From the sequence record PZ445436.1: a stretch of 64,000 bases of DNA, one strand, 5' to 3'. The stretch is from a phage. How positions within the stretch are numbered: position 1 is the first letter of the stretch; each line of letters begins with the position of its first letter. The translations under genes were made by a program, and so were the position numbers. Below, piece by piece: positions 12,558 through 33,141 of the stretch. The notes beneath the pieces are model-generated. The model was given only the letters and a program-made list of their open reading frames with translations, was not told where the DNA came from and searched no databases.

Positions 12558-12576
12558 AGGCCCGAAGGCCTTTTAT
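12556..12576 (-). other. GC-rich UUCG-type hairpin
   Basis: AAAGGCC-CGAA-GGCCTTT palindrome. Confidence 0.4.
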
Positions 12577-12842
12577 TTAAAACGAATAGTTGAATCCTTA
12601 AAGAACAGCCCAGAACATACTGTTCCTTCTACTTTCTGCCCAGTAGGTCCAACAGCACGAAATCCAGTATGTTGGAAATCATTTTCAGAGCAACCGAACC
12701 AGTTATATCCAGTGATTTCAATATTCGTAAAACCACTTGATGATAAAATTTTAGTTGCATTATCAGCATCAGTGCATCCTACTAAAGATACTGCTAATAC
12801 TAATGCTGCGATAGAACGATTAACATATTTCATAATTTTCAC
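12573..12842 (-). CDS. Putative lipoprotein (89 aa)
   Basis: N-terminal signal peptide with lipobox LVGC (MKIMKYVNRSIAALVLAVSLVGCTD...). Confidence 0.5.
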   Translation of the reverse strand: MKIMKYVNRSIAALVLAVSLVGCTDADNATKILSSSGFTNIEITGYNWFGCSENDFQHTGFRAVGPTGQKVEGTVCSGLFFKDSTIRFK

Positions 12843-13210
12843 TTAAATTTAATGGCTTGAAGGAGACTAATAATTCTTAAACGGCTTCTTTCATCTTTAA
12901 CTGTAAAAGAAAGAGGGTCGCCAGATTTCATAGTAATAGTGCATTCAAAATCAAAATCTTCTGTGACTTCTTCGAAGAAGTCAAATTCTTCATCATAAAT
13001 TAGAACACTACTTTGCAGACTGTGGAGAGTTTTTCCAGCATTTCCAGATGCTGTACCAATCATTGTAACATTATGACCTTTCATATCTTCAACGATAAAT
13101 TCGTTTGTCAATATTACAGCATTAATAGAACTATTCCTATTACTAACAGAAAGTAGAAATTTCTGTTCTTCACCTTCACGAATACGATATTTCTTACCAA
13201 TTTTAAACAT
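12839..13210 (-). CDS. Hypothetical protein (123 aa)
   Basis: ORF track. Confidence 0.5.
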   Translation of the reverse strand: MFKIGKKYRIREGEEQKFLLSVSNRNSSINAVILTNEFIVEDMKGHNVTMIGTASGNAGKTLHSLQSSVLIYDEEFDFFEEVTEDFDFECTITMKSGDPLSFTVKDERSRLRIISLLQAIKFK

Positions 13211-13212
13211 AA

Positions 13213-13389
13213 TTACCCTTTAAGTAAGTCGTAAAAACCACCATTCACATGCTTAGGAGCAGAAGGCCGACGAGTAGACAGACGATGACATTTAGGGCAA
13301 ACATCATTTTCTCGTTCAGAAATCTTTTTAATTTTTTCATATTCATGCCCGCAATCTTCGGATTGGCATTTATAATCATACATTGGCAT
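13213..13389 (-). CDS. Small zinc-ribbon protein (58 aa, two CxxC pairs); absent from the ORF track
   Basis: Hand translation MPMYDYKCQSEDCGHEYEKIKKISERENDVCPKCHRLSTRRPSAPKHVNGGFYDLLKG; SD AAGGA; fills the gap between flanking ORFs exactly. Confidence 0.5.
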   Translation of the reverse strand: MPMYDYKCQSEDCGHEYEKIKKISERENDVCPKCHRLSTRRPSAPKHVNGGFYDLLKG

Positions 13390-13391
13390 AA

Positions 13392-13817
13392 TTATTCCTT
13401 AAAATGTGCTTTCAACATCTGATACAAGGACCATGCATGTTCATTATTTTCAATAGTAACTTTCATGACCGGGAATTCTGTGAAATCTTCTATTTGTTCT
13501 TGCTCTTTCTCTTCCTGCTCTTGCTCTTCGGCTGCCTGGTATGGATTTTCCACTTCATCAAAGAACACAGCTTCGCTCGTTGAAAGCCAGATAAAATCTT
13601 CATCCAAAATATCTTTACCAGAAGATAACGCCAATTTTCCACTAGATGTCACAAGTTTAGTAGGACGACCAAGATAGTCAATATCTGTAACTCTAAAAGG
13701 TTCCATACCAAGACGACGTGCATAAATTCCGTTTTCAGTATGGTCCTTGATAAAATCTTCTTGAGCTTGTTTATTTTTAAATTGATACCATTTATTAACT
13801 TCAAATTTAATAGCCAT
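13392..13817 (-). CDS. Hypothetical acidic protein (141 aa); size and position suggest goF, not verified
   Basis: ORF track; acidic [11 protein letters not shown] stretch. Confidence 0.5.
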
Positions 13818-14032
13818 TAATAAGTTTCCTTCCAGTAAGTTGTGCCATCTTCAGTAATTTCACGAAATACACCGTAAATTGGTTGTTTATCACCAACCTT
13901 TTCATACACATAAACCGAAGTCAAGTGAGTAAACTTAACGGTATGTTCTTTTTGAACTACTACCAAATCTGGATCGAATAGTACATCTTCAAATTCGTCA
14001 TTAGTGCAATTCTGAACAATTTTACGTTTCAT
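13817..14032 (-). CDS. Hypothetical protein (71 aa)
   Basis: ORF track. Confidence 0.45.
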
Positions 14033-14045
14033 TACAATTTCCTCA

Positions 14046-14327
14046 TTAATTGAACAGTGGAGCGATGCGTTTCAGAAGAGTAGCAGCACCTTTAGCGAAT
14101 TTTACATCATGAAAAACAGTTTCTTCTTCCGTTACAACACGAGCTTTAATGTTTTCACAATCCCAATTTTTGCGAACAATCTTCAAAAGCTGCAGTAAAT
14201 CTTTACATTCAGCAATATCGATAACACATCCACGAGAATCTTCCATTATCGCACGATAACCGTAAGCCATACCATAATCATTGAAAGATTGCTCGATGAT
14301 AATTAAATTTTCCATTTTATTCTCCAA
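14046..14327 (-). CDS. Hypothetical protein (93 aa)
   Basis: ORF track. Confidence 0.45.
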   Translation of the reverse strand: MENKMENLIIIEQSFNDYGMAYGYRAIMEDSRGCVIDIAECKDLLQLLKIVRKNWDCENIKARVVTEEETVFHDVKFAKGAATLLKRIAPLFN

Positions 14328-14337
14328 GTTGTTTTCT

Positions 14338-14390
14338 GTATCAGTAGTTGATATTGATATAGTACCATAATCAACTACTGATGTATATAG
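14338..14390 (-). promoter_or_regulatory. Promoter-like element with a perfect 12-bp inverted repeat flanking the -10
   Basis: TCAGTAGTTGAT (14341-14352) and ATCAACTACTGA (14370-14381) flank TACTAT; -35 diverged from GTTTAC. Confidence 0.4.
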
Positions 14391-14412
14391 TTTTATGAAA
14401 AAATTTTAAACT

Positions 14413-14904
14413 TTATGCATAGCGAGCTTTGCTATAGTGTTTAATCCAACTTTCAGGAATGACTTTGTATGTTCCTAAAAATACCGCGTTGTATAACTTA
14501 ACGCCATCTTCTACCCATTGATCAGTAATGTATGCACACATAGCGCGAGTACGGTTAACAACACCTTCCTCACCTTCAGTAAATTCAAACTCATAAGGAG
14601 CAACGAACTTAATAGCCTGACCGAGTTTCCACTTAAAGTCTACACCTACATGCGAAGTATCAATCGTTTCAATTCCTTTAGCAGGAACAGCTTTCAAAAA
14701 CGCAGATTCAAGAAATTTCGCACGAACATAGCCAAACTGAGGTTTAGACTTTCCATCTTTAGGAATGATACGCACTTTTACTTCAGAATCTTCATCTTTA
14801 ACACCGTGTTTAAGCTGAATGCTTACAACTTCGACCAATTTTCCTGCCGCTTTAGAGCGGGATTTATCAGATACACGAGCTAATTCACCAATATTAATAA
14901 TCAT
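14413..14904 (-). CDS. Hypothetical protein (163 aa), paralog of the next ORF
   Basis: ORF track; C-terminal TDQWVEDGVKLYNAV motif shared with 14978..15415. Confidence 0.5.
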   Translation of the reverse strand: MIINIGELARVSDKSRSKAAGKLVEVVSIQLKHGVKDEDSEVKVRIIPKDGKSKPQFGYVRAKFLESAFLKAVPAKGIETIDTSHVGVDFKWKLGQAIKFVAPYEFEFTEGEEGVVNRTRAMCAYITDQWVEDGVKLYNAVFLGTYKVIPESWIKHYSKARYA

Positions 14905-14946
14905 AGTTATCTCTCACTTGTTAAAAAGATTTTATACTCCACGGGA

Positions 14947-14980
14947 CCATTATACTCTGGTCCCAAGAGTTTGTAAACTA
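14947..14980 (-). promoter_or_regulatory. Early promoter
   Basis: GTTTAC (14973-14978), 18 bp, TATAAT (14949-14954); GGGACC/GGTCCC inverted repeat around the -10. Confidence 0.5.
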
Positions 14981-15415
14981 GCTTACACGAACATTAATCA
15001 CTGCGCTGCGAGGAACTACAGAGTACTCTCCAGCATGAACTACGTTCAGAAGTTCAACACCATCTTCAATCCACTGATCAGTCACCCATCCACCCACAGG
15101 ATTCGCGAATGGACGACGAATATAAACTGCCTTACACAGTAGATCAGTTGGATCTTCAGGTTTTTCAATTTCTGTCAATAGACTAAAATCTTTTTCATAA
15201 ATAATAAGCGGTGATACCATTCCATAATAGTTTCTAATTTCAATATACATCATACCGATAAGAATTCCGCTATTAACACTAATAACAGTAAAAGGATATC
15301 CGCCAGTTAAAGCAAGAAGTTCACAAAACTTATTATGAGCTGTATTAGACAGTACCGGAAAATTCTTAATTTCATCAAATTTTTTCAATTGATAAACAGC
15401 ATTATTTTTAATCAT
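14978..15415 (-). CDS. Hypothetical protein (145 aa), paralog of 14413..14904
   Basis: ORF track; shared C-terminal motif VTDQWIEDGVELLNVV. Confidence 0.5.
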   Translation of the reverse strand: MIKNNAVYQLKKFDEIKNFPVLSNTAHNKFCELLALTGGYPFTVISVNSGILIGMMYIEIRNYYGMVSPLIIYEKDFSLLTEIEKPEDPTDLLCKAVYIRRPFANPVGGWVTDQWIEDGVELLNVVHAGEYSVVPRSAVINVRVS

Positions 15416-15425
15416 AATTTTCTCT

Positions 15426-15938
15426 TTAATCTAAGGTAATAAAGCCTTTTAATTCGGCATGCGATTTGCGGAACATTACTTGATGTCCGCCAATGATAAC
15501 TTGGTCATCTGGCACTTCATAAATCGCAATGTACATTCCACGTTCTTTTAAGTCTTCACGCTCTTCTCGAGTGAACCATCTCATCATATCATATTCACTA
15601 GCGAAAGCAAAATGATATAATGCAATAAACCATAATGGAATATAATTTTCAATTCGTGAATAATCTTTATTCCATTTAGTTTTAATAACATCATTAGCAT
15701 TTTCAACTAATAACTTATCATCGTGTGGAATAGGAATACTTTCATGGCTTTCATAATTATCGCTATGATGATGAAATGATGATGAATTAATACCACAAAA
15801 TTTTAACCAAGTTCGAGTTTTCATAGAATCAAATCCACGATAAGGAGTTGATTGAACGCATAACTCTTGCCTAATTTTCATTATACCACTATCATCATTT
15901 AATGCACTAAACGATGATTCAACACGATAAATTTTCAT
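15426..15938 (-). CDS. Hypothetical protein (170 aa; start refined to MKIYRV...)
   Basis: ATG 15936-15938 after GAGGATAATAAA; track extension is promoter read-through. Confidence 0.5.
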   Translation of the reverse strand: MKIYRVESSFSALNDDSGIMKIRQELCVQSTPYRGFDSMKTRTWLKFCGINSSSFHHHSDNYESHESIPIPHDDKLLVENANDVIKTKWNKDYSRIENYIPLWFIALYHFAFASEYDMMRWFTREEREDLKERGMYIAIYEVPDDQVIIGGHQVMFRKSHAELKGFITLD

Positions 15939-15963
15939 TTTATTATCCTCAGTAGCTATGGTG

Positions 15964-15997
15964 TTATAATACCACAACTAACCGAGGAAGTAAACAA
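15964..15997 (-). promoter_or_regulatory. Early promoter
   Basis: GTTTAC (15990-15995), 18 bp, TATTAT (15966-15971). Confidence 0.5.
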
Positions 15998-16001
15998 CTT
16001 T

Positions 16002-16685
16002 TTATCGTTTTGTTGGAAGAGATAGAGGATCGCATTCTTCCTCTGATGGAGCATCTTCAAGACCCATAGCATATCGCAAAGCATACTTCATCATCAGGAT
16101 GTCTTTCGCACAGTCATGAATAGAATCATGCGCAACGAATCCATCTAAAGTTCCTTTTGGAAGAGGACACGTGGTCATATCACGAACAAGCAGAAGTGCT
16201 TCAATTCTGGTACGAATATCACGCTGATTCCAGAATTTACAAGGTTCTAACTTAAATGTGTCAAGCTCATTCTCGGAAACGCCGTTAAGACGTTGAATAT
16301 CGCGAATGAGATCGACTAAAATTGGAAAATCAAACGACATTCCACGGCACCAACCTTGAGATTTCCAAGGATCGATATTATGTGCATTGATGTAATCATT
16401 AAATTTTGCAATACCATCGATAGTGCTTACATCTTCATCGGATGGTGCAATATTTTTTCGAGCTTCAGGAGACTGATTTTTCCACCATTCGATAGTGCTT
16501 TTAGTAAAAAGACGATGTCCTTTTTGGCTTTTTAAATCAAATTTGATTTTAATGCCACGTGAAACTAATTCATCAAATGTTTCAACTACTTCTGGGTTAG
16601 GGTCAAAAGCAATTACAGCCAAATCAATAACAGCTGCTTTTTCACCGCTTCCCATTGTTTCAAAATCTATAATAAAATCAAACAT
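16002..16685 (-). CDS. dexA: Exonuclease A (DexA)
   Basis: 227 aa as in T4 DexA; DEDD-type exonuclease residues; adjacent to dda. Confidence 0.75.
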   Translation of the reverse strand: MFDFIIDFETMGSGEKAAVIDLAVIAFDPNPEVVETFDELVSRGIKIKFDLKSQKGHRLFTKSTIEWWKNQSPEARKNIAPSDEDVSTIDGIAKFNDYINAHNIDPWKSQGWCRGMSFDFPILVDLIRDIQRLNGVSENELDTFKLEPCKFWNQRDIRTRIEALLLVRDMTTCPLPKGTLDGFVAHDSIHDCAKDILMMKYALRYAMGLEDAPSEEECDPLSLPTKR

Positions 16686-16942
16686 TAAATTTTCCTCGCT
16701 AAATCACGAATTTGACCTACAGTATAGTCTTGAATATAAACTTTATTGATAGGCTCATCAATAAATTTTGCCATAGATTCAATGTCTTTTTGTATTTCTT
16801 CAAGACTGTATACTATCTTTAAAGCTTTTTCGCGAATAGTAATATTTTCAGGACCCTGATTTTCTTCAATGACAGCTTTAACATTTGTCATAAGAGATTT
16901 AAACTGGTACCAACTCAACTCAATCATTAATAATCGCCTCAT
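16685..16942 (-). CDS. Hypothetical small protein (85 aa), member of a tandem triplet
   Basis: ORF track. Confidence 0.45.
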   Translation of the reverse strand: MRRLLMIELSWYQFKSLMTNVKAVIEENQGPENITIREKALKIVYSLEEIQKDIESMAKFIDEPINKVYIQDYTVGQIRDLARKI

Positions 16943-17180
16943 AAAGATAGCTAATTTCGCCTAAAACGTAATCACTGATTGTAACAGTTTTCACTTCACC
17001 GCAAAAGAATTCTAACGCAATTAAATCTCGTTCAATTTCTTCTAATTGAAGCATCAACTTATTAGATTCAATTTTTACAGTTTCACGATTTTTACCATGA
17101 GCAATTTCATAAATTTCGCTCACTTTATCTTGAAGCAGATAAAACTGATCTTTAGTTATTTCCACGAATAGCTTCCTCAA
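16920..17180 (-). CDS. Hypothetical small protein (86 aa), member of a tandem triplet
   Basis: ORF track. Confidence 0.45.
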   Translation of the reverse strand: MRKLFVEITKDQFYLLQDKVSEIYEIAHGKNRETVKIESNKLMLQLEEIERDLIALEFFCGEVKTVTISDYVLGEISYLYEAIIND

Positions 17181-17412
17181 ATTTAATTAGTAATTTACAG
17201 ACACTTTCATCTAGTGTAATTACCGTATCTGTATTACTGTGATATGATTGTTTTTCAATTCGTTTAATTGCTAATATAGTATCACTTATAAGATAAAGCT
17301 TATGAAGGAGCTCAGCTCCTGTTACCATAACATCGAGATTATCTTGCTTATTAGTATGCTTCCTTATACCATCTATTAGACGATTTAAATATTTTGAATT
17401 GATGTTAATCAT
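17152..17412 (-). CDS. Hypothetical small protein (86 aa), member of a tandem triplet
   Basis: ORF track. Confidence 0.45.
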   Translation of the reverse strand: MININSKYLNRLIDGIRKHTNKQDNLDVMVTGAELLHKLYLISDTILAIKRIEKQSYHSNTDTVITLDESVCKLLIKFEEAIRGNN

Positions 17413-17418
17413 ATAGCC

Positions 17419-18738
17419 TCACACATAAAATACATCATAACGACCACGAGTTACACCAACATAAAGAAGTTGTTGGGCCAATTCAGCATCTGCATAATGA
17501 ATACAAGGCGTATAAATGAAAGCACGGTCTACAGACATACCCTGAGCTTTATGGAATGTTGATGCAGGAAGTGCTTTCACTTTACTAAACTGTGATTTAG
17601 CATCCCAAAAATCACTCCATGGAGCTTTTCCGCCTTTGTTCCAATTTTTATAAGTTTCTGCCGTTTTACCTAAAAATAGGTTAAACTTATACAATTCTTC
17701 ATCAGATGAAATTATTTTAATCTTTTCACGATAATATTCATCATCGCCGTAAGTTTCTACTGTTAAATCCCAATGACGAATTAAGTATTCTCCAGGAACA
17801 CCACGGGCTTTAACAAACGTTGATGTATACTCTGCTTCTATAATACGAACTAATTGTCCGTTATTAAAAATAATTTCTGACACAGGCTTTCCATCAATTT
17901 TATATGTTTTAATTAATGGTTCCTGCATTACAATAATTTCACCTACAATAAAATCTTTATCAGTTTCAAAAATCTTTTTACGAATAATGCTATTTAACTT
18001 GTCAACAGATTTATTCGTAAATGCCATTACGCGATTTTCAAACAAATCATCTAGAGATTTGACGATTGAAAAATAATTTACCATAAAATCGCGTAAAGCG
18101 GTATCACCTGTAAATCCACGTACTCCATGCCCGTCAACAACTTTATCATAAATCCACTTACCGTTGCGAACATCAGTAGCTACATCAATAATAGGAGCAT
18201 TACTGCGTTTAACTTCAGTAAGTTCACACTGATAAAAATCTTTGTGTGTAAAGAATGGACTGATATAAGCAGTATTTTCTCCTGGATCAACAGGTCTAAT
18301 TTGCTTATTATCCCCTATTCCAATTATAGTACACCAAGGTGGAATAGTTGAAAGCAGAATTTTAAATAGCTTTCTATCATACATTGACACTTCGTCGCAG
18401 ATTAATACCCTGCATTTAGCTAAATCTGGTACTTCCTTCTGTTCAAAAAGAACGTTTTCTTCATACGTAACTGGGTTAATTTTAAGAATACTGTGAATAG
18501 TACTCGCTTCTTTCCCCGACAGTTTTGAAAGAATCTTTTTAGCTGCATGTGTAGGAGCTGCCAAAATGATACCAGTTTCGCCTGTTGATATTAAAGCTTC
18601 AATGATGAACTTAGTAAGAGTAGTCTTACCGGTACCAGCAGGTCCATTAATAGTTACATGATGTTTCTTTTCTTTAATAGCCTTCATAACAATGTTAAAG
18701 GCATTTTTCTGGCCTTCGGTCAAATCATCAAATGTCAT
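17419..18738 (-). CDS. dda: DNA helicase Dda (SF1B)
   Basis: 439 aa; Walker A GPAGTGKT; sequence matches recalled T4 Dda. Confidence 0.88.
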   Translation of the reverse strand: MTFDDLTEGQKNAFNIVMKAIKEKKHHVTINGPAGTGKTTLTKFIIEALISTGETGIILAAPTHAAKKILSKLSGKEASTIHSILKINPVTYEENVLFEQKEVPDLAKCRVLICDEVSMYDRKLFKILLSTIPPWCTIIGIGDNKQIRPVDPGENTAYISPFFTHKDFYQCELTEVKRSNAPIIDVATDVRNGKWIYDKVVDGHGVRGFTGDTALRDFMVNYFSIVKSLDDLFENRVMAFTNKSVDKLNSIIRKKIFETDKDFIVGEIIVMQEPLIKTYKIDGKPVSEIIFNNGQLVRIIEAEYTSTFVKARGVPGEYLIRHWDLTVETYGDDEYYREKIKIISSDEELYKFNLFLGKTAETYKNWNKGGKAPWSDFWDAKSQFSKVKALPASTFHKAQGMSVDRAFIYTPCIHYADAELAQQLLYVGVTRGRYDVFYV

Positions 18739-19046
18739 CGGAAAGTCCCTGCAATTGGAATACTAACAATACGCCCAGTATCTAGAATTCGTTGATATAA
18801 TCTTTGTGTATCTACATCAGGCTTAACATGTTTAACTTCTATTTTATTAAACCAAAATTTACGTGGAGTCTCAACTAATCTTGGAATTCCCTTACCTAAA
18901 GCTAGTTGATACTGCTCTTTAAGAGTGGTAAATACTTTGTCAGCAATATTCCATTCAAAAAATACAGCAGGACGATGTTCATCAAGCGGAACTGGCGCCG
19001 TAAATCCGTCTTTGTCTCGGTAAACTATCGCATATACATAAACCAT
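18735..19046 (-). CDS. Hypothetical protein (103 aa)
   Basis: ORF track. Confidence 0.45.
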   Translation of the reverse strand: MVYVYAIVYRDKDGFTAPVPLDEHRPAVFFEWNIADKVFTTLKEQYQLALGKGIPRLVETPRKFWFNKIEVKHVKPDVDTQRLYQRILDTGRIVSIPIAGTFR

Positions 19047-19047
19047 A

Positions 19048-19794
19048 TTATCCTCGGATAAGTTTAAAAATTGAACAATTTAGCGGGTATCCTCTTTTTA
19101 ATTTGAGTTTATCAATAAATGATAAGTTTTGAAACCGCTCTACACCTTGAATAATTTTATCACACATATCATATTGCATTTCTGCTTCTGACAACTTTTT
19201 CACAGTTTTCCAATCCGAGCCTTTAAGAAGAACGTTCAATTTAACAACTTCAGCGCCTTCTGCTATACGAGAACCATCAATACGAGCTTTAAGTGCTATA
19301 ATTCTTAGCTTAATGTCAGAGGTCTGTTTTGATTTAGAAAGCTGAGAAATGTGTTCAATTCGGTTTTCACGTTTTTTCTGTATAGCTTTAATTTGATTAT
19401 AAGTCTTTTTGATTTTAGCCCATTTCTTTTCATCTAAATTTAGTTTATGAACTTTTTTCGCAGATGAACGACCAATTCGCAAAGCAAATAAATCACGCTT
19501 TTCAATCAACTCTTCTAAAGTATAATCAGAACGAAATGTATTATACTTTTTCTTTACTGCAATAACATTCCCTTTAATGTATCCAACGTTATTATCAAAA
19601 CGTTCTAATGATAATTTCTCTCCTTCAATACGATTATCAAAAGGTTCTCCCGAGTAAGCGCAAACTTTTTGATCTAAAATGTTCTTAATGTAATTGAAGT
19701 CTAAGTTAAAATCTTTAGAACGTCTTTTTGCAGATGCCTGGGTATGCTCTAGACGACGTTTAATTTTACGAATTTGGTTATTAGACAGCTTCAT
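19048..19794 (-). CDS. Hypothetical basic protein (248 aa); occupies the srd position of T4, not verified
   Basis: ORF track; own early promoter upstream. Confidence 0.5.
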   Translation of the reverse strand: MKLSNNQIRKIKRRLEHTQASAKRRSKDFNLDFNYIKNILDQKVCAYSGEPFDNRIEGEKLSLERFDNNVGYIKGNVIAVKKKYNTFRSDYTLEELIEKRDLFALRIGRSSAKKVHKLNLDEKKWAKIKKTYNQIKAIQKKRENRIEHISQLSKSKQTSDIKLRIIALKARIDGSRIAEGAEVVKLNVLLKGSDWKTVKKLSEAEMQYDMCDKIIQGVERFQNLSFIDKLKLKRGYPLNCSIFKLIRG

Positions 19795-19828
19795 ATTTTT
19801 CTCACATCTTACGGACGGTTAACTACTT

Positions 19829-19862
19829 ATACTATAACATTTTTACTTTAACTTGTAAACAA
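19829..19862 (-). promoter_or_regulatory. Early promoter
   Basis: GTTTAC (19855-19860), 18 bp, TATAGT (19831-19836). Confidence 0.5.
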
Positions 19863-19916
19863 CTTTATGAAAAATGCTTTAAAACTTTCATGGTATAATG
19901 AATCTAAGTCCTTCCA

Positions 19917-21139: not shown

Positions 21140-21163
21140 GATAGCCTCCGTATACTTCAGAAG

Positions 21164-21197
21164 CTATCATATCATCGTTAGAAAGGAAAGTAAACAA
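21164..21197 (-). promoter_or_regulatory. Early promoter for modB/modA
   Basis: GTTTAC (21190-21195), 18 bp, TATGAT (21166-21171). Confidence 0.5.
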
Positions 21198-21206
21198 CTT
21201 TTTGAA

Positions 21207-21389
21207 TTATTTTGCCCAGGGAGCCCAAGGCGGAGGGTCAAGATGGTATGAAGCTAGTTCTTCTAGAAGAGCATCTGGGGCTTCAATTCCATAATTCTGT
21301 AATACTATACGGTATTCTTTCTTATAATCACTAGAATCATTCTGGATATTCGTAGAATGATTATCTTCTAACATCTCAAATAAATCCAT
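21207..21389 (-). CDS. Hypothetical protein (60 aa)
   Basis: ORF track. Confidence 0.4.
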   Translation of the reverse strand: MDLFEMLEDNHSTNIQNDSSDYKKEYRIVLQNYGIEAPDALLEELASYHLDPPPWAPWAK

Positions 21390-21397
21390 ACTAATTC

Positions 21398-24013: not shown

Positions 24014-24531
24014 TAATAACCTCGGTCTTGACGAGCGAAGTTTTCAGCATTTTTCAGGTAATAAAGTTTAAAGATTTCTTCAGCTGACATTCCAAGAGCA
24101 ATAAATTTATTCATGAAAAAGTGAAATTGATCAATCAGTTCAAATTTAATTTCAAGTTGATCTTCAGGAGATAAGTCTTGAATTTTCTTGGATTGCATTT
24201 CAGAATAACGTTTCTTCCAAGGTTTCCATACAGCAGAAGCTTCTTTTTCACCATTACTCATACCACCAAGAGAAGTATATAGCTCGCGAGTTTCGTCTGC
24301 AATATAATCGTCTTGGTTTCGCAACCAAGCAAGAACTTCTCCTGCAGTTTCAAGTGAATCAGGATGACGATTTGTTTCTGGTTTATCATTAGCCAAACGA
24401 ATCTGTAAATGCCGCTGCATATCAAGCATAACCTGCAGTGGGTCAATATTGTGCATAATATTCTCAGCATATGCACGATTTGCTTTATCAACACCTTCGA
24501 TCAAATGAGCACATTCATTAAAGTGAGCCAT
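24013..24531 (-). CDS. Hypothetical protein (172 aa; start refined to MAHFNECAHL...); possible all-alpha NTP pyrophosphohydrolase (MazG-like) fold
   Basis: ATG 24529-24531 with SD AAAGGA; acidic E..GE...DE stretch; fold assignment is a guess. Confidence 0.5.
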   Translation of the reverse strand: MAHFNECAHLIEGVDKANRAYAENIMHNIDPLQVMLDMQRHLQIRLANDKPETNRHPDSLETAGEVLAWLRNQDDYIADETRELYTSLGGMSNGEKEASAVWKPWKKRYSEMQSKKIQDLSPEDQLEIKFELIDQFHFFMNKFIALGMSAEEIFKLYYLKNAENFARQDRGY

Positions 24532-24602
24532 TATTTTTCCTTTCAATTCATGGGTTAGTAGATTAATTATACAATAAATATATAAAGCAATAAGGAGGAC
24601 AT

Positions 24603-24803
24603 ATGGTACAAAAATTAATGGCACTTGTTAATGCCATCAAAGGTAATAAAAAGCGTATAGCTTTTACTATTTCTGCTATGGTAGGAATTTTACTCTGGAA
24701 CTTTATTTTATCACCTGTTGCAATTGCACATGGTATTAATATTCCAGTAGTTACTCTTGATACATTCGTAGATTTAGCATTTGCTTTAGTTGGGTTAATT
24801 TAA
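24603..24803 (+). CDS. Small hydrophobic protein (66 aa) on the plus strand, convergent with gene 61
   Basis: Strong SD AAGGAGG 4 nt before ATG; stop shares the TTAA tetranucleotide with the gene 61 stop; predicted TM helix. Confidence 0.45.
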   Translation: MVQKLMALVNAIKGNKKRIAFTISAMVGILLWNFILSPVAIAHGINIPVVTLDTFVDLAFALVGLI

Positions 24804-25828: not shown

Positions 25829-25830
25829 TT

Positions 25831-25995
25831 TTACTCTTCTTTTTCTTTAGATTCCTCTTTTTTCTTTTTAGGAATCTGTTCAGGACCTTTATTTACTACA
25901 GCACCTGATGTTGTTCCAGTAGAGATATTTTCAGGATTACCACCTGAATCTCCAGCAACCATATCTTCTTTGATAAATTCTTTATATGTTTTCAT
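25831..25995 (-). CDS. Small hydrophilic protein (54 aa), tightly coupled upstream of gene 61; absent from the ORF track
   Basis: Hand translation MKTYKEFIKEDMVAGDSGGNPENISTGTTSGAVVNKGPEQIPKKKKEESKEKEE; stop lies 2 nt before the gp61 ATG. Confidence 0.4.
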   Translation of the reverse strand: MKTYKEFIKEDMVAGDSGGNPENISTGTTSGAVVNKGPEQIPKKKKEESKEKEE

Positions 25996-25996
25996 A

Positions 25997-26623
25997 TTAA
26001 CCTCTATTCATAAAAGCATTAAAAATTTGGTCATCAATAGAAACATTTACTTTAGACTGTTTTTCTGATGGTAATTCATATCCACATATTACAATTTTGT
26101 GATCAATATCAAAATACACAGAAGCAATATGATTAATGATGTTTTCAGTAAAGTCTAAATCAACATCAATATCTTTTTGACCACAGCCCAAAGGATAAAT
26201 AATGCGAGTAATTCGATTATCTTTAACAAATATTCCACCGACATACTCTGTGCTGCGTTTAAAGTCTACACGCCGACGAAATGAAAAATATTCAGGCTCT
26301 CTATGAGCTCGGCTCATAGGACACAACGAGTAACTAGAATAAGAGATGTCAAATCCTACGCCTTCAATATGAGCCAAAGTGTCATGATTAAACCAATTAT
26401 AATCGTACGCCAAATCCATTAGATTATAATATGTAAAAGGCACCGGATTAACATCATTAGTCACAAGCATGTAATTAGCAACTGCTATAATTTCATTGTT
26501 TTTAACGAATACAAACCGTGATTGATGCGAATGACCTGGACCCGCGTTTTCACGATTAATGATATAACACTGGGCACCTTTATATTTGTATGTATCTTTG
26601 CATTTGTGCATTTGATAGAGCAT
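25997..26623 (-). CDS. Hypothetical protein (208 aa) in the 41-61 intergenic insert
   Basis: ORF track. Confidence 0.5.
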   Translation of the reverse strand: MLYQMHKCKDTYKYKGAQCYIINRENAGPGHSHQSRFVFVKNNEIIAVANYMLVTNDVNPVPFTYYNLMDLAYDYNWFNHDTLAHIEGVGFDISYSSYSLCPMSRAHREPEYFSFRRRVDFKRSTEYVGGIFVKDNRITRIIYPLGCGQKDIDVDLDFTENIINHIASVYFDIDHKIVICGYELPSEKQSKVNVSIDDQIFNAFMNRG

Positions 26624-26916
26624 TATTCACCTACCACTTCAGCGATGATATTTTTATTATTAAAGTTTTTATCGCAATACAGAACATAATTATACTGCAT
26701 TACACCACCAGACTTAAGCTGTTTTTGCACTTCGGCTTTCATTTCAGGACGATCGCGCTCAACGATATTCATAATATCTGCTTCAATTTGGGTTTCAACT
26801 TCAGTCTGATCCGCAATCATAGACCATTCGCACAAATCTTTATCATAGCCTGCCATAGCAGGCTGAGCAGCACAAGAAGCTAAAGCAAAAATTGTAGCAA
26901 AGATAAATTTTTTCAT
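26623..26916 (-). CDS. Putative lipoprotein (97 aa)
   Basis: Signal peptide with lipobox LASC (MKKFIFATIFALASCAAQ...). Confidence 0.5.
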   Translation of the reverse strand: MKKFIFATIFALASCAAQPAMAGYDKDLCEWSMIADQTEVETQIEADIMNIVERDRPEMKAEVQKQLKSGGVMQYNYVLYCDKNFNNKNIIAEVVGE

Positions 26917-26976
26917 GATAATCTCCTCAGTAGTTTATGTTTATATAGTATCTCAATTTCCAATAAAAGTAAACAG

Positions 26977-27276
26977 TTATTTTAAAATTTTTGCATAATC
27001 ACATGTTACAAACTGTTTCTCTAGCTTGACGATTTTACGAAAGTATCTTTTGCATTGGCGAATCTGTCGCTTCGTAGGACGTACAGCAAACTTAATAAAT
27101 TCCACTCGACCAAATGGAGGGCTTTCTTCTGCTGGAATATCTAACACCAATTCCCACGTATCTGCAATAAGTGCTTTGAATTGCGTATTTTTCCTGACGT
27201 TATACGGAGTAGGTTTAAATAAAACAATATGCATATTATCCTCGGCAATCCACTTCACATACTTTCTTGTCATCAA
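26977..27276 (-). CDS. Hypothetical basic protein (99 aa)
   Basis: ORF track. Confidence 0.45.
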   Translation of the reverse strand: MMTRKYVKWIAEDNMHIVLFKPTPYNVRKNTQFKALIADTWELVLDIPAEESPPFGRVEFIKFAVRPTKRQIRQCKRYFRKIVKLEKQFVTCDYAKILK

Positions 27277-27418
27277 TGAAAGCTTTAACTAATGCTTTAT
27301 TAACTTCAGCATACTGAGTAGTAGCCCATTGAACGTCATCTTTCATCATTGTGGTTTCTTTAGTAAACATGCTTTCATTCTTAAACCACCCCATAAAAAC
27401 TACCTTTACCAATTCCAT
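27236..27418 (-). CDS. Hypothetical protein (60 aa)
   Basis: ORF track. Confidence 0.4.
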   Translation of the reverse strand: MELVKVVFMGWFKNESMFTKETTMMKDDVQWATTQYAEVNKALVKAFIDDKKVCEVDCRG

Positions 27419-27445
27419 AACAATCTCCTCATTTAACCAACAAGA

Positions 27446-27479
27446 CTACTATACCATAGTCTCGTTAGCTTGTAAACTA
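27446..27479 (-). promoter_or_regulatory. Early promoter overlapping the 3' end of gene 41
   Basis: GTTTAC (27472-27477), 18 bp, TATAGT (27448-27453). Confidence 0.5.
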
Positions 27480-28904
27480 AAATTTTAATTCATTCGCCAA
27501 AGCATCTAACTGAGCTCGGGTGGATTCATTTCTTTGATAGCGATTCTGTTCAGCCTGAATCTGCTGTGAACCTGCTACTTCACTCACTTCAGTTGGAGTA
27601 GAATCTTGTTCAATTTCTACCCATTTCTGATTTCCCTTTTGAACACCCATCAAAAACTTATTCCACTTATTCTTATCGCCATATCGTGATTTAATTTGCT
27701 TAATGAGTTGTTGTTCAGCAGCTGCTAGCTCCTCGGTTTCAATGACCGCAAGCATAAAATCAGCTGTTGCTGGAAGACCAGCAGATTCTGCAATATCGCT
27801 CATGTTAACATCAGAAGAATCCCAAGCCTGTTTACCAACCTGTGCTGCAGTCCAAAGAACAGTTTCGGTTTCAACAGCTAGAGCACGCAATTCCTCTGCA
27901 ATAGCTTTAACAGTTGTGTAACTATTTTCTGAATAAACTCGGATGCGACAAGATTTACAAATACCTAGATAGTCGACAATAATGATTGTTGGAACAAAAT
28001 TCTTTTTGAGCTTCAATTCATTCAATAGAGACCTGAATGTGTTAGCATCTGCCCCACCAGTAGGATACTGTTTAACGATTAAACGGCCGAGAGTAGATTT
28101 CTCACGCCATTTTTCCATTTTTCCTTTATACTCAGCGTAAGAAATATGCCCATCATCAATGTCATCAAGAGAAACATCAAGCATATTAGCATCAATACGT
28201 TTAGCACAGACTTCTTCTGCCATTTCCATGGAAATGTAAAGAACATTATGTCCGAGCTGTAAATAATCTGCTGCCAATGAACACAATCCTAATGACTTAC
28301 CAACGTTAACGCCAGCCATTAAAACGTTCAGTGTTCCAGTCTCAGCTCCGCCTTTCGTAATTTTGTTTAGAATTCTGAGTTTAAATGGAACCTTACGAGC
28401 TTTATTCATATAAGATAGCCAACGTGCTTCGTAGTCATCCATCCAATCATGACCAACGTAACTATCAAATGAAATTGATAATGCTTGGCGCATGATGTCA
28501 GGAATAGCACCAACATCCGGCATTTTCTTATTTCGTTTTTCCGGAGGAAGTTCAGCATTAGTTTGAATTTCGATTATTTTAGACGTAGCATTAAACATCG
28601 CCCTTTGCTGAACATATTTTTCTGTTTCTTTTATTAACCAACTGTGGTCTTCCGGAGAATCAGCCAGTTTTGAAATAAGTGTTTTTACACCAGAATATTC
28701 TGTTTCAGTAAATGAACTATTTTCTAATGCAACATTTAACGCATTAATAGATGGAACGCTATGATACTCATTGACATGAGATTTAATTAATTTGAATGTA
28801 TTTTTAGCTGGACCACTTTCAAAATATTCTGAATCCATATATGGCCAAACTTTTGAAAAATAAGCTTGATCAAATATGAGATGAGAAAGAATAATTTCTA
28901 CCAC
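27477..28904 (-). CDS. 41: Replicative DNA helicase (gp41, DnaB family)
   Basis: 475 aa as in T4 gp41; Walker A GVNVGKS. Confidence 0.88.
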   Translation of the reverse strand: MVEIILSHLIFDQAYFSKVWPYMDSEYFESGPAKNTFKLIKSHVNEYHSVPSINALNVALENSSFTETEYSGVKTLISKLADSPEDHSWLIKETEKYVQQRAMFNATSKIIEIQTNAELPPEKRNKKMPDVGAIPDIMRQALSISFDSYVGHDWMDDYEARWLSYMNKARKVPFKLRILNKITKGGAETGTLNVLMAGVNVGKSLGLCSLAADYLQLGHNVLYISMEMAEEVCAKRIDANMLDVSLDDIDDGHISYAEYKGKMEKWREKSTLGRLIVKQYPTGGADANTFRSLLNELKLKKNFVPTIIIVDYLGICKSCRIRVYSENSYTTVKAIAEELRALAVETETVLWTAAQVGKQAWDSSDVNMSDIAESAGLPATADFMLAVIETEELAAAEQQLIKQIKSRYGDKNKWNKFLMGVQKGNQKWVEIEQDSTPTEVSEVAGSQQIQAEQNRYQRNESTRAQLDALANELKF

Positions 28905-28913
28905 ACTTACTCC

Positions 28914-29276
28914 TTAAAAGAATTTAAATTTTTTCTTTGACCTTTTATTAAATGCATCTTGCAGTTGCATTGTAATACATTTTTCTACATGAGGAGCTAA
29001 CTCAGCTTTTCTTTCTTGGTCAAGAACAGCAAAGTCCATTACAACCTTTCCATCAACCCAATCCAGTTTAGTTACATACACTATATGCGTAGAACCATCT
29101 TCTAGTTTAATGACAATCTCCTGGATAACATTTTCCATAGCAGATTTAATTATCTTAAGAGACTCATTAAAAAGACGTTCTTTTCTTTCTTCTTCCCCCT
29201 CCGAAGAGGGGGATTCATCGATAATTTCCAGATCTAAATCTAAATCATCTTTATTCATTAAATTCTTCCATATCAC
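28914..29276 (-). CDS. Hypothetical acidic protein (120 aa) in the gene 40 position
   Basis: ORF track; lies between uvsX and 41. Confidence 0.5.
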   Translation of the reverse strand: MIWKNLMNKDDLDLDLEIIDESPSSEGEEERKERLFNESLKIIKSAMENVIQEIVIKLEDGSTHIVYVTKLDWVDGKVVMDFAVLDQERKAELAPHVEKCITMQLQDAFNKRSKKKFKFF

Positions 29277-30432
29277 TTAACTGTTCGAGGTCAGTTTCTA
29301 AATCAGCAGCTGATTTACTTTTACTTTCTGGAGATTTAAATTTTTCAACCTTTGAGTTAATCAATTCATCAACTTCAGCTTCAACAATTTCATTGCTATC
29401 AATAGCACCTAACTGATAAGCACGTTTAATAGCATCTCGGAATGGTTGATGCTTAAATAAAGGACCCCAGAATGTAGTGCAGTTGGTATCTTTTGCACGC
29501 CAAGATTTTTCTTCGCGAATCATCTCACCGGTTTCTTCATCAAGAAATTCACGGGCATACCAGCCATTTTTAGGTTTTACTACAAATCCTAATTCTAGAG
29601 CCATATCTAACAATCCAGAATAAGGATCGATACCACCGTCAAATTTAACATCAATAAAGAATTTACTTTTTTCTTTAACGGTACGAGATTTTTCTACATT
29701 TAGAACAAATTGATACCCCTGAAGATCAGAACCATCTTTAATCTGGCGTTTACCGATAATGAATACGGTATCAGCCGAATACATTACGCCTGTACCACCT
29801 GTCATCACGGTTTTACTAAACATTTCAATTGTTTCAATTGTATGGTTAACCGCAACGCACGGAATATTTTTAATGCTAAAATAAGGAGTAACAATACGGA
29901 ATAATGACTTCAGTGATTTAGCACGAGTCATATCTGCCACAGATTTTTCATTCAAGGCATCTTCCGTTTCTTTCTTAGAAGCCATATTACCGATTGAGTC
30001 GATGAATACAATAACCTTTTCACCACGCTCAATAGCTTCAAGCTGGTTCACCATATCAATTTTCAGCTGTTCAACTGACTGGATTGGCGTATGAATTACT
30101 CGTTCCGGGTCAACTCCCATGGATCGCAAATAAGCTGGAGTAATACCAAATTCGCTATCATAGAATAGACAAACCGCGTCAGGATATTTGTTCAAATATG
30201 CCGCAACCATAGTCAAAGACATATTTGATTTAAAGTGTTTAGAAGGCCCTGCGAAAATAGTTAAACCAGACTGCATACCGCCATCAATCGCACCAGAAAT
30301 AGCAATATTAAGCATTGGGATTTTTGTACGGATTACATCCTTTTCATTAAAGAATTTAGATGTAGTCAGTTCAGCAGTCATTTTAGAAGTGGAAGCTTTA
30401 ATCAAACGGGATTTTAAATCTGCAATAGACAT
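29251..30432 (-). CDS. uvsX: Recombinase UvsX (RecA-like)
   Basis: 393 aa; sequence matches recalled T4 UvsX. Confidence 0.88.
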   Translation of the reverse strand: MSIADLKSRLIKASTSKMTAELTTSKFFNEKDVIRTKIPMLNIAISGAIDGGMQSGLTIFAGPSKHFKSNMSLTMVAAYLNKYPDAVCLFYDSEFGITPAYLRSMGVDPERVIHTPIQSVEQLKIDMVNQLEAIERGEKVIVFIDSIGNMASKKETEDALNEKSVADMTRAKSLKSLFRIVTPYFSIKNIPCVAVNHTIETIEMFSKTVMTGGTGVMYSADTVFIIGKRQIKDGSDLQGYQFVLNVEKSRTVKEKSKFFIDVKFDGGIDPYSGLLDMALELGFVVKPKNGWYAREFLDEETGEMIREEKSWRAKDTNCTTFWGPLFKHQPFRDAIKRAYQLGAIDSNEIVEAEVDELINSKVEKFKSPESKSKSAADLETDLEQLSDMEEFNE

Positions 30433-30509
30433 TCATTTTTTCCATAGGCATCATTATATTTTCCTCACTGGTTAAAGATAGAGTAATTATAACACAATAA
30501 ATTTAGGCA

Positions 30510-31358
30510 TTAATCAACTGCTATTGGATGAATAGCATTAAACTTATGAAATGCTTCTGATTTTTCTTTACGCGAAACACACATGCGAAGAACCTTTAGT
30601 GGTTCGTCTTCTTCACCCAACGATTTTCGTTTTTCAATATTAGAAGTTTTCCAACGAGCTTGCTCTGGAAACTCTCTATTGATTTGCTCAAGCGCTCTAT
30701 TATGTTTAGAATTACTACGAATTGAGCTGCACCCGCCAGGAGCTTGTGCTTTTCCAGATACAACCAGATATTTGAACAAGGCCAAATGCGGATAACCTTG
30801 ATTAATTAAATTGAGAAATGCATACATATCTTCGCATAAATCAATTTTTCCATACCCAATTTGTTCTGTCGTAAGTTTTCCGAGGTCATACCATGTATTC
30901 GTGAATCCGTATGAATTTTCACGATAATTACCCCAAGATGAAGTAATTTTAAAAATAGGTAGACGAGCATGGCCATGATAATACCCGCAATCCATGGCAT
31001 CTTCAACGTATTGAATCAATTCATAGAACTGTTCACGAGTTAATTGATTAACTTTATCTACGCAGCGACGATCATCTCTCTTTCGCATTGAACTCATACG
31101 AATAGTAGTATCATCGTCAATCATCCAGATTCGTTGACCTGCATACATATCAGTAATTGCTTTACGAGTACCGGCAATTCCGTTTACATCATCAGGAATA
31201 GTTATAATTTTAGCTCTAGACCCATAAGCATCATAATAAGCTTTTTCTTCGTGTTCACGCACTACAATATGCGGTTCATAATCAGTCGGAAACATATCAA
31301 GGGCAGAAACTGCCCCGACACGTTGATAACTTGGAATTACGAATTGAATCATTTCCAC
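30510..31358 (-). CDS. Glycosyltransferase, GT-A-like (DxD motif), in the slot occupied by beta-gt in T4
   Basis: 282 aa with IDDD motif; T4 beta-gt is recalled as 351 aa and GT-B; consistent with a T2/T6-type second glucosyltransferase. Confidence 0.55.
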   Translation of the reverse strand: MEMIQFVIPSYQRVGAVSALDMFPTDYEPHIVVREHEEKAYYDAYGSRAKIITIPDDVNGIAGTRKAITDMYAGQRIWMIDDDTTIRMSSMRKRDDRRCVDKVNQLTREQFYELIQYVEDAMDCGYYHGHARLPIFKITSSWGNYRENSYGFTNTWYDLGKLTTEQIGYGKIDLCEDMYAFLNLINQGYPHLALFKYLVVSGKAQAPGGCSSIRSNSKHNRALEQINREFPEQARWKTSNIEKRKSLGEEDEPLKVLRMCVSRKEKSEAFHKFNAIHPIAVD

Positions 31359-32089
31359 TCACCTTTATAGTCTTTTTTCACAATATGAGTTTCGCCAGTA
31401 TTCCACCAATGATCAACCAAATAAAAATGACGAGAATATACATGAAGACTTCCAACATTCCATATAATAGAACCTGCTTTATACTGACGAGTTGAATCGC
31501 CTGCATTCAAATCAGATACTAATTTATCTAATACGTATTTTTGCCATGCATAATCATTACGGAATCCGAAGACCACGTCATTTGAGCGCATGTTAACAAC
31601 TGCATTAATTTTCTTGTCACGAATCAGATACTGTACGGTATTCGTACACATGAAATCTGACATGCCATCTTTATTGTAGTCAAACTGCATAGATGGACGA
31701 GTATAAATCATGATACCACGTCGAGAATCAGGATTTTGACCAAGTTCAGCTAAACACATATCATACTGGGCATAGTTATCTTCTGACCAAATAGCCCAGC
31801 CATAATTCGAGTTAATTTCGCCTTTAGAAGATGCTACCTGCTGCCAAATCTTTGGTGTTTCACCCGGAATATCTTTAACGAACAAACTCTTAGATTTATA
31901 CCATTCAAGTTCACGCTGAATGTATTCATCATTAAGAGCGCCAAAAATAAACGGTTCATCTGCTACAAATGATGCGCCAATAATTTCAATAGTTTTAACG
32001 CCAGTTTTATCAACTACGAAATCTTTTTCCTTTAATGCAGTTCCCAAATAAAAACGGATTTCTTCAACTGTCATAGAGTCATTAATCAT
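31349..32089 (-). CDS. 42: dCMP hydroxymethylase (gp42)
   Basis: 246 aa as in T4 gp42; thymidylate-synthase-like. Confidence 0.8.
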   Translation of the reverse strand: MINDSMTVEEIRFYLGTALKEKDFVVDKTGVKTIEIIGASFVADEPFIFGALNDEYIQRELEWYKSKSLFVKDIPGETPKIWQQVASSKGEINSNYGWAIWSEDNYAQYDMCLAELGQNPDSRRGIMIYTRPSMQFDYNKDGMSDFMCTNTVQYLIRDKKINAVVNMRSNDVVFGFRNDYAWQKYVLDKLVSDLNAGDSTRQYKAGSIIWNVGSLHVYSRHFYLVDHWWNTGETHIVKKDYKGEWK

Positions 32090-32242
32090 TTAAACCTCAA
32101 TTGATGCATTCATATTTAAATTGTAACAGTAATAAACCCCACCCTATGATAAGAGTTGGAATCATAGCAGGAACTGTTACGCTATAGTATATACTTATTA
32201 TAACCATCAAGATTAAAAGCAACACTGCTATAATTTTGCTTT

Positions 32243-32494
32243 TCATTCCTTTTCTCTGATGATAATTACCTGATTTGGCTGTGTAGACTTTTTAGTTTCA
32301 CCCGCAATTGACCAAATAAATGTAATAAACCAACCAATAATTGACCAGTTAAACAGTAAAGATGTGAAAAAGATTCCTACTGTCGATTTTGACCCACGCA
32401 TCAAGGCGATAAACCATGGAAGCATGTATATAATAATAGCCAACACGCCTGAAACTAAAACCATAAAAATTGAACCTGCTACTAAAGTTTCCAT
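32243..32494 (-). CDS. imm: Superinfection immunity protein Imm
   Basis: 83 aa membrane protein in the T4 imm position. Confidence 0.65.
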   Translation of the reverse strand: METLVAGSIFMVLVSGVLAIIIYMLPWFIALMRGSKSTVGIFFTSLLFNWSIIGWFITFIWSIAGETKKSTQPNQVIIIREKE

Positions 32495-32501
32495 GTTTTC
32501 C

Positions 32502-32882
32502 TCACTTAGTCAAATTTTTTACACATGAATTATAAGAATTCACTACATACTCCATCGGAGCATTTTTACCGGTACGCCATTGGTAATTATTAGCCCAATT
32601 AGCCCAAAGCTCGGCGCAGTAGTTTTCAATTTTTTCTTCGCGTGTAATTACATCCGAATTACGATATGCTTGAGCAGATTCATCTGGACGAATAGCTTCG
32701 TCAAAATTCGCCTGCATTTGTTCGACTGTTTGCTTTGGAGCTTCTTTATAACACTTGACATTAGGATTATAAAATTTGCTTGAACAGTTTACAATTTTTC
32801 CTACATCAGACTGATTTACTACCGGTCCTTGAGCTACACAACCAGTAAGACCTAATGCAATAACCAAAATAGCGATTTTCAT
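32502..32882 (-). CDS. Putative lipoprotein (126 aa)
   Basis: Signal peptide with lipobox LTGC. Confidence 0.5.
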   Translation of the reverse strand: MKIAILVIALGLTGCVAQGPVVNQSDVGKIVNCSSKFYNPNVKCYKEAPKQTVEQMQANFDEAIRPDESAQAYRNSDVITREEKIENYCAELWANWANNYQWRTGKNAPMEYVVNSYNSCVKNLTK

Positions 32883-32892
32883 AATAATTTCC

Positions 32893-33141
32893 TCAAATGC
32901 AAGTAGTAATTACTCCAGTAGTGCTTATGCAGGTATTACCCATTTGCACACCTAGCGTTCCATTAGTATTCATATGAAGATTATCATCAATTTTAACTGA
33001 TATTTTACCATTAGTGTGAATAACGGTGCTAGATTCAATCACAGGTTGAGTATCATTTTCAACACTAACAAATGGAACTGCTGCTAATGCAACTAAACAA
33101 ACTGCTAAGCATCCCATAACAATTTTCATTTTATTCTCCAA
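32893..33141 (-). CDS. Secreted/membrane small protein (82 aa)
   Basis: Hydrophobic N-terminal signal-like segment. Confidence 0.45.
   Translation of the reverse strand: MENKMKIVMGCLAVCLVALAAVPFVSVENDTQPVIESSTVIHTNGKISVKIDDNLHMNTNGTLGVQMGNTCISTTGVITTCI

Follow-up and report, generated by a model that had tools for sequence, protein, structure and literature searches.

Candidate lipoproteins and further predicted envelope proteins among the early genes of a T4-like phage

Introduction

For fifty years, superinfection exclusion by phage T4 has been ascribed to two proteins, Imm and Spackle. Here, we analysed 64,000 nucleotides (nt) of one strand of the phage sequence record PZ445436.1 (the window, to whose positions all coordinates refer), in which an original prediction had flagged four small open reading frames (ORFs) as genes of lipoproteins or secreted proteins, with possible roles in exclusion or in the inhibition of periplasmic host factors. 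These ORFs are probably four early genes for envelope proteins exported via the Sec pathway, namely Spackle, the lipoprotein Imm.1, a lipoprotein of the 39.1 type and a protein of 78 amino acids (aa). The four small genes are mutually unrelated, and their products would leave the cytoplasm via the Sec pathway of the host to act in the cell envelope. Two modest new leads emerged from the analysis, the linkage of imm.1 to imm and an invariant lipobox in the Spackle leader, which is unexplained.

Results

The four ORFs and their lipoboxes

The phage of the window is a Tequatrovirus (T4-like), as three sub-regions matched more than 500 Tequatrovirus genomes at 95–100% identity (megablast). The genes 39, dexA, dda, modA/B, 61, 41, uvsX, 42 and 43 follow each other in the order known from T4 (NC_000866), all on the minus strand. 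The end coordinates originally predicted for the four ORFs proved exact, but the genes lie on the minus strand; a plus-strand reading of the four intervals is ruled out by stops throughout. The main features are the following (aa positions count from the start codon):

12573..12833, minus strand: gene of the 39.1-type candidate lipoprotein, 86 aa from the ATG at 12833, leader MKYVNRSIAALVLAVSLVG/C, phrog_902
12774..12776, minus strand: codon of the 39.1-type lipobox Cys (LVGC)
26623..26916, minus strand: sp (spackle, gp61.3), 97 aa, matching PF25676 and PDB 6X6O
26872..26874, minus strand: codon of Cys15 of sp (lipobox LASC)
26851..26853, minus strand: codon of Ala22 of sp, at the published signal peptidase I site Ala22/Gly23 (Edman degradation, PMC7650644)
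32502..32882, minus strand: imm.1 (DUF5481), 126 aa, leader MKIAILVIALGLTG/C, matching PF17578, phrog_1754 and T4 Imm.1
32838..32840, minus strand: codon of Cys15 of imm.1 (canonical lipobox LTGC)
32893..33129, minus strand: 78-aa accessory ORF (MKIVMGCLAVCLVALAAVPFVSV...), phrog_4189, with a signal peptide or signal anchor and two C-terminal Cys

All four are real early genes of catalogued families, which occur near-unchanged in hundreds of genomes and are in this respect already known. Their shortness, and the longer antisense ORFs overlapping two of them, could suggest chance open frames. However, each of the four belongs to a Pfam or PHROG family with hundreds of conserved copies and is preceded by a Shine-Dalgarno-like sequence, and imm.1 and sp are early genes of T4 at the RNA and the protein level, both proteins having been detected (PMC9697503 supplement). 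The chance-frame reading, to which we give practically no weight, is already refuted by conservation and proteomics.

The three lipoboxes claimed in the original prediction, LVGC (12573..12842), LASC (26623..26916) and LTGC (32502..32882), were all borne out by a rule in the style of PROSITE PS51257 (K or R within residues 1–7, an uncharged stretch, [AGS]-C with the Cys at 15–35). For membership in the lipoprotein class, the motif [LVI][ASTVI][GAS]-C was sought behind a positively charged n-region and an uncharged hydrophobic h-region, and all three ORFs conform to it. Whole-protein shuffles of 118 proxy genes of the window, a set in which longer antisense ORFs replaced the 39.1-type gene and sp, so that its observed count is an undercount and the shuffle expectation alone was used, gave a chance level of 0.15 matches to the rule per 118 proteins (P(≥3) = 0.0005), which the three lipoboxes surpass. 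Going by the sequences, conservation of the lipobox Cys in the 39.1-type and Imm.1 proteins far exceeds chance. Scans of the proteins against NCBIfam and PADLOC returned sub-threshold noise only.

The sole further real gene passing the rule was a 51-aa membrane ORF (4215..4370, minus strand), which we take to be T4 ac. It was rejected as a lipoprotein, its Cys being located inside a predicted transmembrane helix of a protein with two hydrophobic segments, and exemplifies a false positive of lipoprotein calling by pattern alone.

Imm.1 and its linkage to imm

Imm.1 of the window is matched by the PF17578 (DUF5481) profile with 239.2 bits (cut-off 27, residues 22–124) and is 99% identical to T4 Imm.1 (PF17578, phrog_1754), with no structural difference. 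DUF5481 is a catalogued family without a described function. Beyond the lipobox Cys, the protein contains four Cys, of which C89 and C120 are invariant. By tblastn, imm.1 was found in 656 phage records, all of them Tequatrovirus (at least 95% identical) or Mosigvirus (~33%), the identity being at least 95% in 501 of these records. When 1.8 billion representatives were searched exhaustively with HMMER, six family members only came up; four distant ones were contributed by this search, and a k-mer-seeded search gave near-identical proteins alone. PDB sequence and profile searches gave no match for Imm.1. RefSeq names T4 imm.1 (T4p046, NC_000866) “iduronate sulfatase”, which is unsupported by any search here, and other names in this record look mis-transferred as well (dexA.2 “dextranase”, modA.3 “Mrh transcription modulator”).

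The lipobox Cys is present in six of seven DUF5481 members and in four diverged relatives adjacent to imm. In E. coli, the residue following this Cys sets membrane sorting (+2 rule). As none of the Imm.1 relatives has an Asp at this position, location in the outer membrane is predicted.

In six genera of the Tevenvirinae, a lipoprotein gene directly adjoins imm, despite relocation and swapped gene order. It lies immediately beside the PF14373 gene and on the same strand in the window and in the comparison loci L002, L003, L004, L005, L006, L010, L011, L012 and L014. All DUF5481 relatives are found immediately upstream of the Imm_superinfect gene, in three contexts:

Tequatrovirus (window, L003, L005): 43 / imm.1 / imm / 42
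Mosigvirus (L002): dmd / imm.1 / imm / sp
Metagenomic locus (L006): FRD3 / imm.1 / imm / 49-aa ORF

Genera without an imm.1 detectable by tblastn still feature a lipoprotein gene beside imm, either upstream, as in Klebsiella phage Roth51 (Jiaodavirus-like) and Moonvirus KM16, or downstream with swapped order, as in Gaprivervirus VR20 and Dhakavirus dhabil. With Imm.1, these diverged proteins share the lipobox, GC..QG.VV..SEVGK as the motif after the Cys, and a pair of C-terminal Cys, and hhalign against Imm.1 gave 97% for VR20 (E 8e-11) and 92% for Roth51 (E 5.6e-07). Among the coding-strand ORFs of the compared imm loci, a lipobox was found in the imm neighbour only, plus sp in L002. The adjacency kept through relocation and order swap lends indirect support, as we infer, to a role of Imm.1 in the Imm exclusion module, and makes the originally suggested part in exclusion plausible for this protein.

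Knock-down of imm.1 in T4 caused no fitness cost in single infection (CRISPRi-ART, PMC11879866 supplement), the only situation for which this screen reports fitness, and such a neutral outcome is as expected of an exclusion factor. According to the proposed mechanism, Imm.1 would be modified with diacylglycerol at Cys15, cut by signal peptidase II and held by its anchor so as to face the periplasm, where it may act via the conserved peptide right behind the lipid anchor (GC..QG.VV..SEVGK) and via a helical hairpin at the C-terminus that is braced by a disulfide. Made early and dispensable in single infection, it would be inherited as a unit with imm.

The Spackle leader

The PF25676 (T4_Spackle) profile matches sp with 147.9 bits (cut-off 27, residues 1–96), and its product is 98% identical to PDB 6X6O/7CN6 across all 97 residues (phmmer E 5e-61 for 6X6O). 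Compared with T4 Spackle (gp61.3; Pfam PF25676; PDB 6X6O, 6XC0, 6XC1, 7CN6, 7CN7), leader and Cys29/Cys81 pair are alike, the two substitutions T34I and K53E being the only ones. Mature T4 Spackle is exported and forms an inhibitory 1:1 complex with gp5's lysozyme domain (PMC7650644, PMC7677548). Judged by its sequence, the sp product of the window should be a gp5 lysozyme inhibitor, this activity having been shown for the 98% identical T4 protein. Following export, the 22-residue leader would be removed, and the 75-residue helical protein would bind the gp5 lysozyme domain of a superinfecting phage and thereby block cell-wall digestion. The original idea of exclusion or periplasmic inhibition hence holds true for Spackle, for which it was already known (PMC7650644, PMC7677548); the target is, however, gp5 of the incoming phage and not a host factor.

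In the literature, the leader of 22 residues figures as an ordinary signal peptide, whereas in our analysis its Ser14-Cys15 lipobox turned out to be invariant. Both residues were conserved in 20 of 20 homologues (49–96% identity, four genera and metagenomes), always within a lipobox-compatible context (LASC, VASC, AVSC or VSSC). Pro19 and Ala22 were likewise invariant in this set, and most other leader positions were variable. The codon used is TCT, TCA or AGT for Ser14 and TGT or TGC for Cys15, and these synonymous codon switches therefore point to selection on the Spackle protein, not on the DNA.

According to Edman degradation of soluble protein, freed by freeze-thaw after plasmid-based over-expression, T4 Spackle starts with Gly23 and is cleaved after Ala22 (PMC7650644). 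This N-terminus is a signal peptidase I product, so that the label “lipoprotein” is without experimental backing in the case of Spackle; the word is absent from both structure papers (PMC7650644, PMC7677548). The soluble Gly23 form was moreover the major released Spackle species (PMC7650644), which speaks against partial lipidation, as does the distant Spackle of Morganella phage Rgz1 (hhalign 97%), a protein of 80 aa with a Cys-less leader ending in ANA/G. Edman degradation is, on the other hand, blind to an acylated N-terminus and was applied to the soluble pool alone; a lipidated Spackle pool could therefore exist. The original classification of sp as a lipoprotein is thus correct with regard to the LASC pattern and conflicts with the published Gly23 N-terminus, although, given the invariant Ser14-Cys15, it may still apply to part of the protein. 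A lipobox conserved in a leader regarded as disposable has implications for the place at which Spackle encounters the arriving tail tip. Imm.1 and Spackle are both small and helical and contain disulfides; homology of their mature domains was considered and rejected, hhalign aligning the leaders only.

The 39.1-type lipoprotein

The 39.1-type gene of the window corresponds to T4 gp39.1 (phrog_902) in locus and mature sequence. In the list of ORFs it extends to a GTG at 12842 (89 aa), but the true start is most likely the ATG at 12833, because the homologues begin with MKY. All of the 23 homologues keep the lipobox Cys, followed by Thr-Asp, as well as two further Cys behind a freely varying leader, and the Thr after the Cys predicts sorting to the outer membrane (E. 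coli +2 rule). In the reference T4 (NC_000866, 2399..2700 of comparison locus L001), LVGC is changed to LINS and a +1 insertion of T leads to a stop, while the window copy is intact with 86 aa. The T4 leader codons are still present upstream of the annotated 65-aa gp39.1, which by its sequence is a leaderless, frameshifted remnant of a gene kept intact (86 aa) by natural relatives.

The gene occurs in 1070 phage records, including phages of Klebsiella, Enterobacter, Serratia, Aeromonas, Stenotrophomonas and Sphingobium. In BFVD, matches were obtained, among others, to proteins from Agrobacterium phage Atu_ph07 and from Edwardsiella phage pEt-SU, and a relative with the lipobox LLSAC is located in a mobile-element-like region of Pandoraea. 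Some sources already label homologues “Lipoprotein”. PDB sequence and profile searches gave no match, literature searches for a 39.1 lipoprotein gave noise or nothing, and knock-down of 39.1 in T4 caused no fitness defect (CRISPRi-ART, PMC11879866 supplement). The structure model shows one helix packed on a four-stranded sheet, with weak PepSY/cystatin-like fold matches, e.g., YpmB (2GU3), VirB8 (2CC3) and the colicin M immunity protein (2XGL). The proteins matched in these PepSY, VirB8 and cystatin-like folds are envelope or periplasmic proteins, some of them inhibitors or immunity proteins. The 39.1-type protein could accordingly be described as a small lipoprotein of the outer-membrane type with one disulfide and a helix-plus-sheet domain, which probably, at a guess from its fold, binds or inhibits an envelope protein. 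Nothing links it to exclusion, the role originally suggested. It belongs to the more widely distributed envelope proteins of phages without an assigned function, and may have escaped notice on account of the broken copy in the reference T4.

Several observations concern its surroundings. A clean indel of ~377 nt between 39.1 and 39.2 accounts for the absence from T4 of a 123-aa ORF (12839..13210, minus strand, phrog_622); the N-terminal half of this ORF is matched as well by a PHROG that carries the annotation goF mRNA metabolism modulator. In the window, gene 39 consists of one ORF of 606 aa (10686..12506, minus strand), whereas the large topoisomerase subunit of T4 is split into 39 and 60; phage RB51 annotates the equivalent of the unsplit gene as “60plus39”.

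The 78-aa protein

For the ORF flagged at 32893..33141, the ATG at 33129, located 7 nt behind a GGAG, is the most likely start and gives 78 aa. Its signal-like N-terminus was rightly noted in the original prediction: a 20-residue hydrophobic stretch with an ALA/A site could serve as signal peptide or as membrane anchor, and its h-region tolerates a duplication of seven residues in phage SA20RB. The leader offers no usable lipobox, one Cys being at position 7 and the other having Val at -1. The gene is without a T4 counterpart owing to a clean 248-nt indel, and was found in 325 phage records, all of them Tequatrovirus-like. It would represent an accessory cassette for a small secreted or N-terminally anchored protein; a role in exclusion is again linked to it by nothing in the analysis.

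Layout of the imm block and neighbouring features

32243..32494, minus strand: imm, superinfection immunity membrane protein (PF14373 at 58.2 bits; T4 annotation), directly downstream of imm.1
32097..32246, minus strand: 49-aa ORF with two hydrophobic segments (phrog_3610), overlapping the imm stop codon (ATGA)
33167..33195, minus strand: promoter-like site with TG (TTTACA and TACTAT, spaced by 17 nt), preceding 78-aa ORF / imm.1 / imm / 49-aa ORF / gene 42
33284..33301, minus strand: terminator-like hairpin after gene 43, parting the polymerase gene from the envelope-protein block
27448..27476, minus strand: promoter-like site with TG (TTTACA and TATAGT, spaced by 17 nt), immediately behind gene 41 and upstream of dmd / 61.4 / sp

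The 78-aa ORF, imm.1, imm and the 49-aa ORF together make up a block of four small genes for envelope proteins, which lies between genes 43 and 42 behind the terminator-like hairpin and an early-type promoter-like site. The equivalent of this site (33167..33195) is annotated as a T4 early-type promoter in phage SA20RB. Two of the flagged ORFs were originally placed on either side of imm; both are in fact on its 5' side, the other side being occupied by the 49-aa ORF (32097..32246), which had not been listed. This ORF is conserved in T4 DNA, where it is unannotated (NC_000866), and also follows imm in the metagenomic locus L006.

In the CRISPRi-ART screen of T4, imm was scored “Fit” (1.40, p = 0.02) though regarded as non-essential (PMC11879866 supplement); polarity on gene 42, which lies just downstream, may account for this score. 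The genes imm and sp are directly adjacent in two lineages distant from each other, those of Rgz1 (L013, 1507..1940) and of Mosigvirus PhAPEC2 (L002, 2925..3530), and ~5 kb apart in T4-type genomes. Between genes 56 and 61, a gap of ~270 nt (24530..24800) is found at the place of dam in T4; dam appears to be missing in the window. This gap holds a putative 66-aa ORF on the plus strand with two hydrophobic segments (24603..24803).

Discussion

Gene identities, lipobox conservation, synteny, early expression and dispensability of the genes are established by the data presented and cited here. Building on these, Imm.1 could tentatively be seen as a periplasm-facing, tethered accessory of the Imm-mediated block to DNA entry of a secondary phage, a role suggested by sequence and gene order and to which we assign clearly less than an even prospect. 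If an imm-travelling lipoprotein indeed takes part, it would offer a handle on the mechanism of the DNA-entry block by Imm, together with a third component. The more far-reaching idea, that T-even exclusion may have an unrecognised lipoprotein layer, comprising an Imm.1-type partner of Imm for a full or phage-specific DNA-entry block and a partly Cys15-lipidated, membrane-tethered Spackle, whose soluble Gly23 form would be just one of two pools, is on the whole unlikely.

Several points weigh against such a participation of Imm.1. In Morganella phage Rgz1, imm is followed by sp and adjoined by no lipoprotein gene, Imm.1 of Mosigvirus lacks the VV..SEVGK motif, and in the DUF5481 member P0029 the lipobox Cys is replaced by Phe and a site resembling that of signal peptidase I is present; the lipid anchor of the family is therefore not obligatory. 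Lu and Henning are said to have found in 1989 that plasmid-borne imm alone gives immunity, and if so, Imm.1 would not be strictly required. No paper mentioning DUF5481 was found, searches for imm.1 gave noise or nothing, and literature searches returned no experiment on lipidation, localisation or exclusion for Imm.1, 39.1 or the 78-aa protein.

Alternatively, imm.1 could owe its place beside imm merely to the inheritance of gene order, in an early region that is plastic, and act outside exclusion, e.g., in envelope stabilisation, lysis timing or the protection of progeny. This explanation, which we regard as somewhat unlikely, would be in line with the neutral knock-down of imm.1, with the occurrence of imm without an adjoining lipoprotein gene in Rgz1 and small non-T4-like phages, and with the strong divergence of the imm-adjacent lipoproteins outside the N-terminal motif. 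However, the adjacency outlasts the transfer from 43/42 to dmd/sp (Mosigvirus), the placement in a third context (L006) and the order swap in Gaprivervirus and Dhakavirus, while other genes of the 43/42 interval, e.g., the 78-aa ORF, were gained and lost.

Lipidation itself, as well as membrane sorting and each function except that of Spackle, is what we infer from the conserved features. The lipobox matches could be incidental and the proteins ordinary signal peptidase I substrates, soluble in the periplasm as published for Spackle. Such a view finds support in the Gly23 start of periplasm-released Spackle, in the Cys-less Rgz1 leader ending in ANA/G, in P0029 and in a possible small-x-small site right after the Cys of Imm.1 (CVA/Q). 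It is quite unlikely in light of the 39.1-family Cys, kept in 23 of 23 homologues behind a variable leader with no alternative cleavage motif, and of the canonical L-[TASV]-G-C recurring in Imm.1-type proteins of six genera. The invariant Ser14-Cys15 of 20 Spackle homologues, encoded by switching codon families, is furthermore hard to explain for a discarded residue, and the chance expectation amounts to 0.15 matches per proteome. Another option would be the masking of an outer-membrane phage receptor by one or both lipoproteins, as for T5 Llp and FhuA, averting superinfection and the loss of progeny on debris. A precedent of lipoprotein-based exclusion exists (PMC9586334), and the residue after the Cys predicts outer-membrane sorting. 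A mask should, however, co-vary with the receptor, and of 656 records, 501 have an Imm.1 with an identity of at least 95%, the 39.1-type protein being similarly conserved. Tequatroviruses use differing receptors (OmpC, Tsx, FadL, OmpF), and the near-identity of Imm.1 among them argues against masking. As T4 exclusion is moreover not known to block adsorption and no Pfam, PHROG or PADLOC match to receptor-blocking families was obtained, we consider receptor masking very unlikely.

Small lipoproteins directed against incoming phages are familiar from other systems. Cor of phi80 and N15 and Ltp of Streptococcus phage TP-J34 are expressed early or from the prophage, and Ltp blocks DNA injection, the same step as Imm. 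No sequence or fold similarity was detected between the window lipoproteins and exclusion factors of the Llp, Cor or Ltp type. Llp of T5 resembles the window lipoproteins in being a small phage-encoded lipoprotein (PMC9586334), and like Cor and Ltp it acts from the periplasmic side against the incoming phage. The o-spanins (Rz1-type) are likewise small lipoproteins of phages with an outer-membrane destination. In contrast to the window genes, which are early, located among replication genes and without an i-spanin partner, o-spanin genes are late and embedded in or adjoining an i-spanin gene. A reading of the window lipoproteins as o-spanins was accordingly judged unlikely, since their neighbours are gene 39, the ORF matching the goF PHROG, imm and genes 43 and 42, all in a setting that is early in T4.

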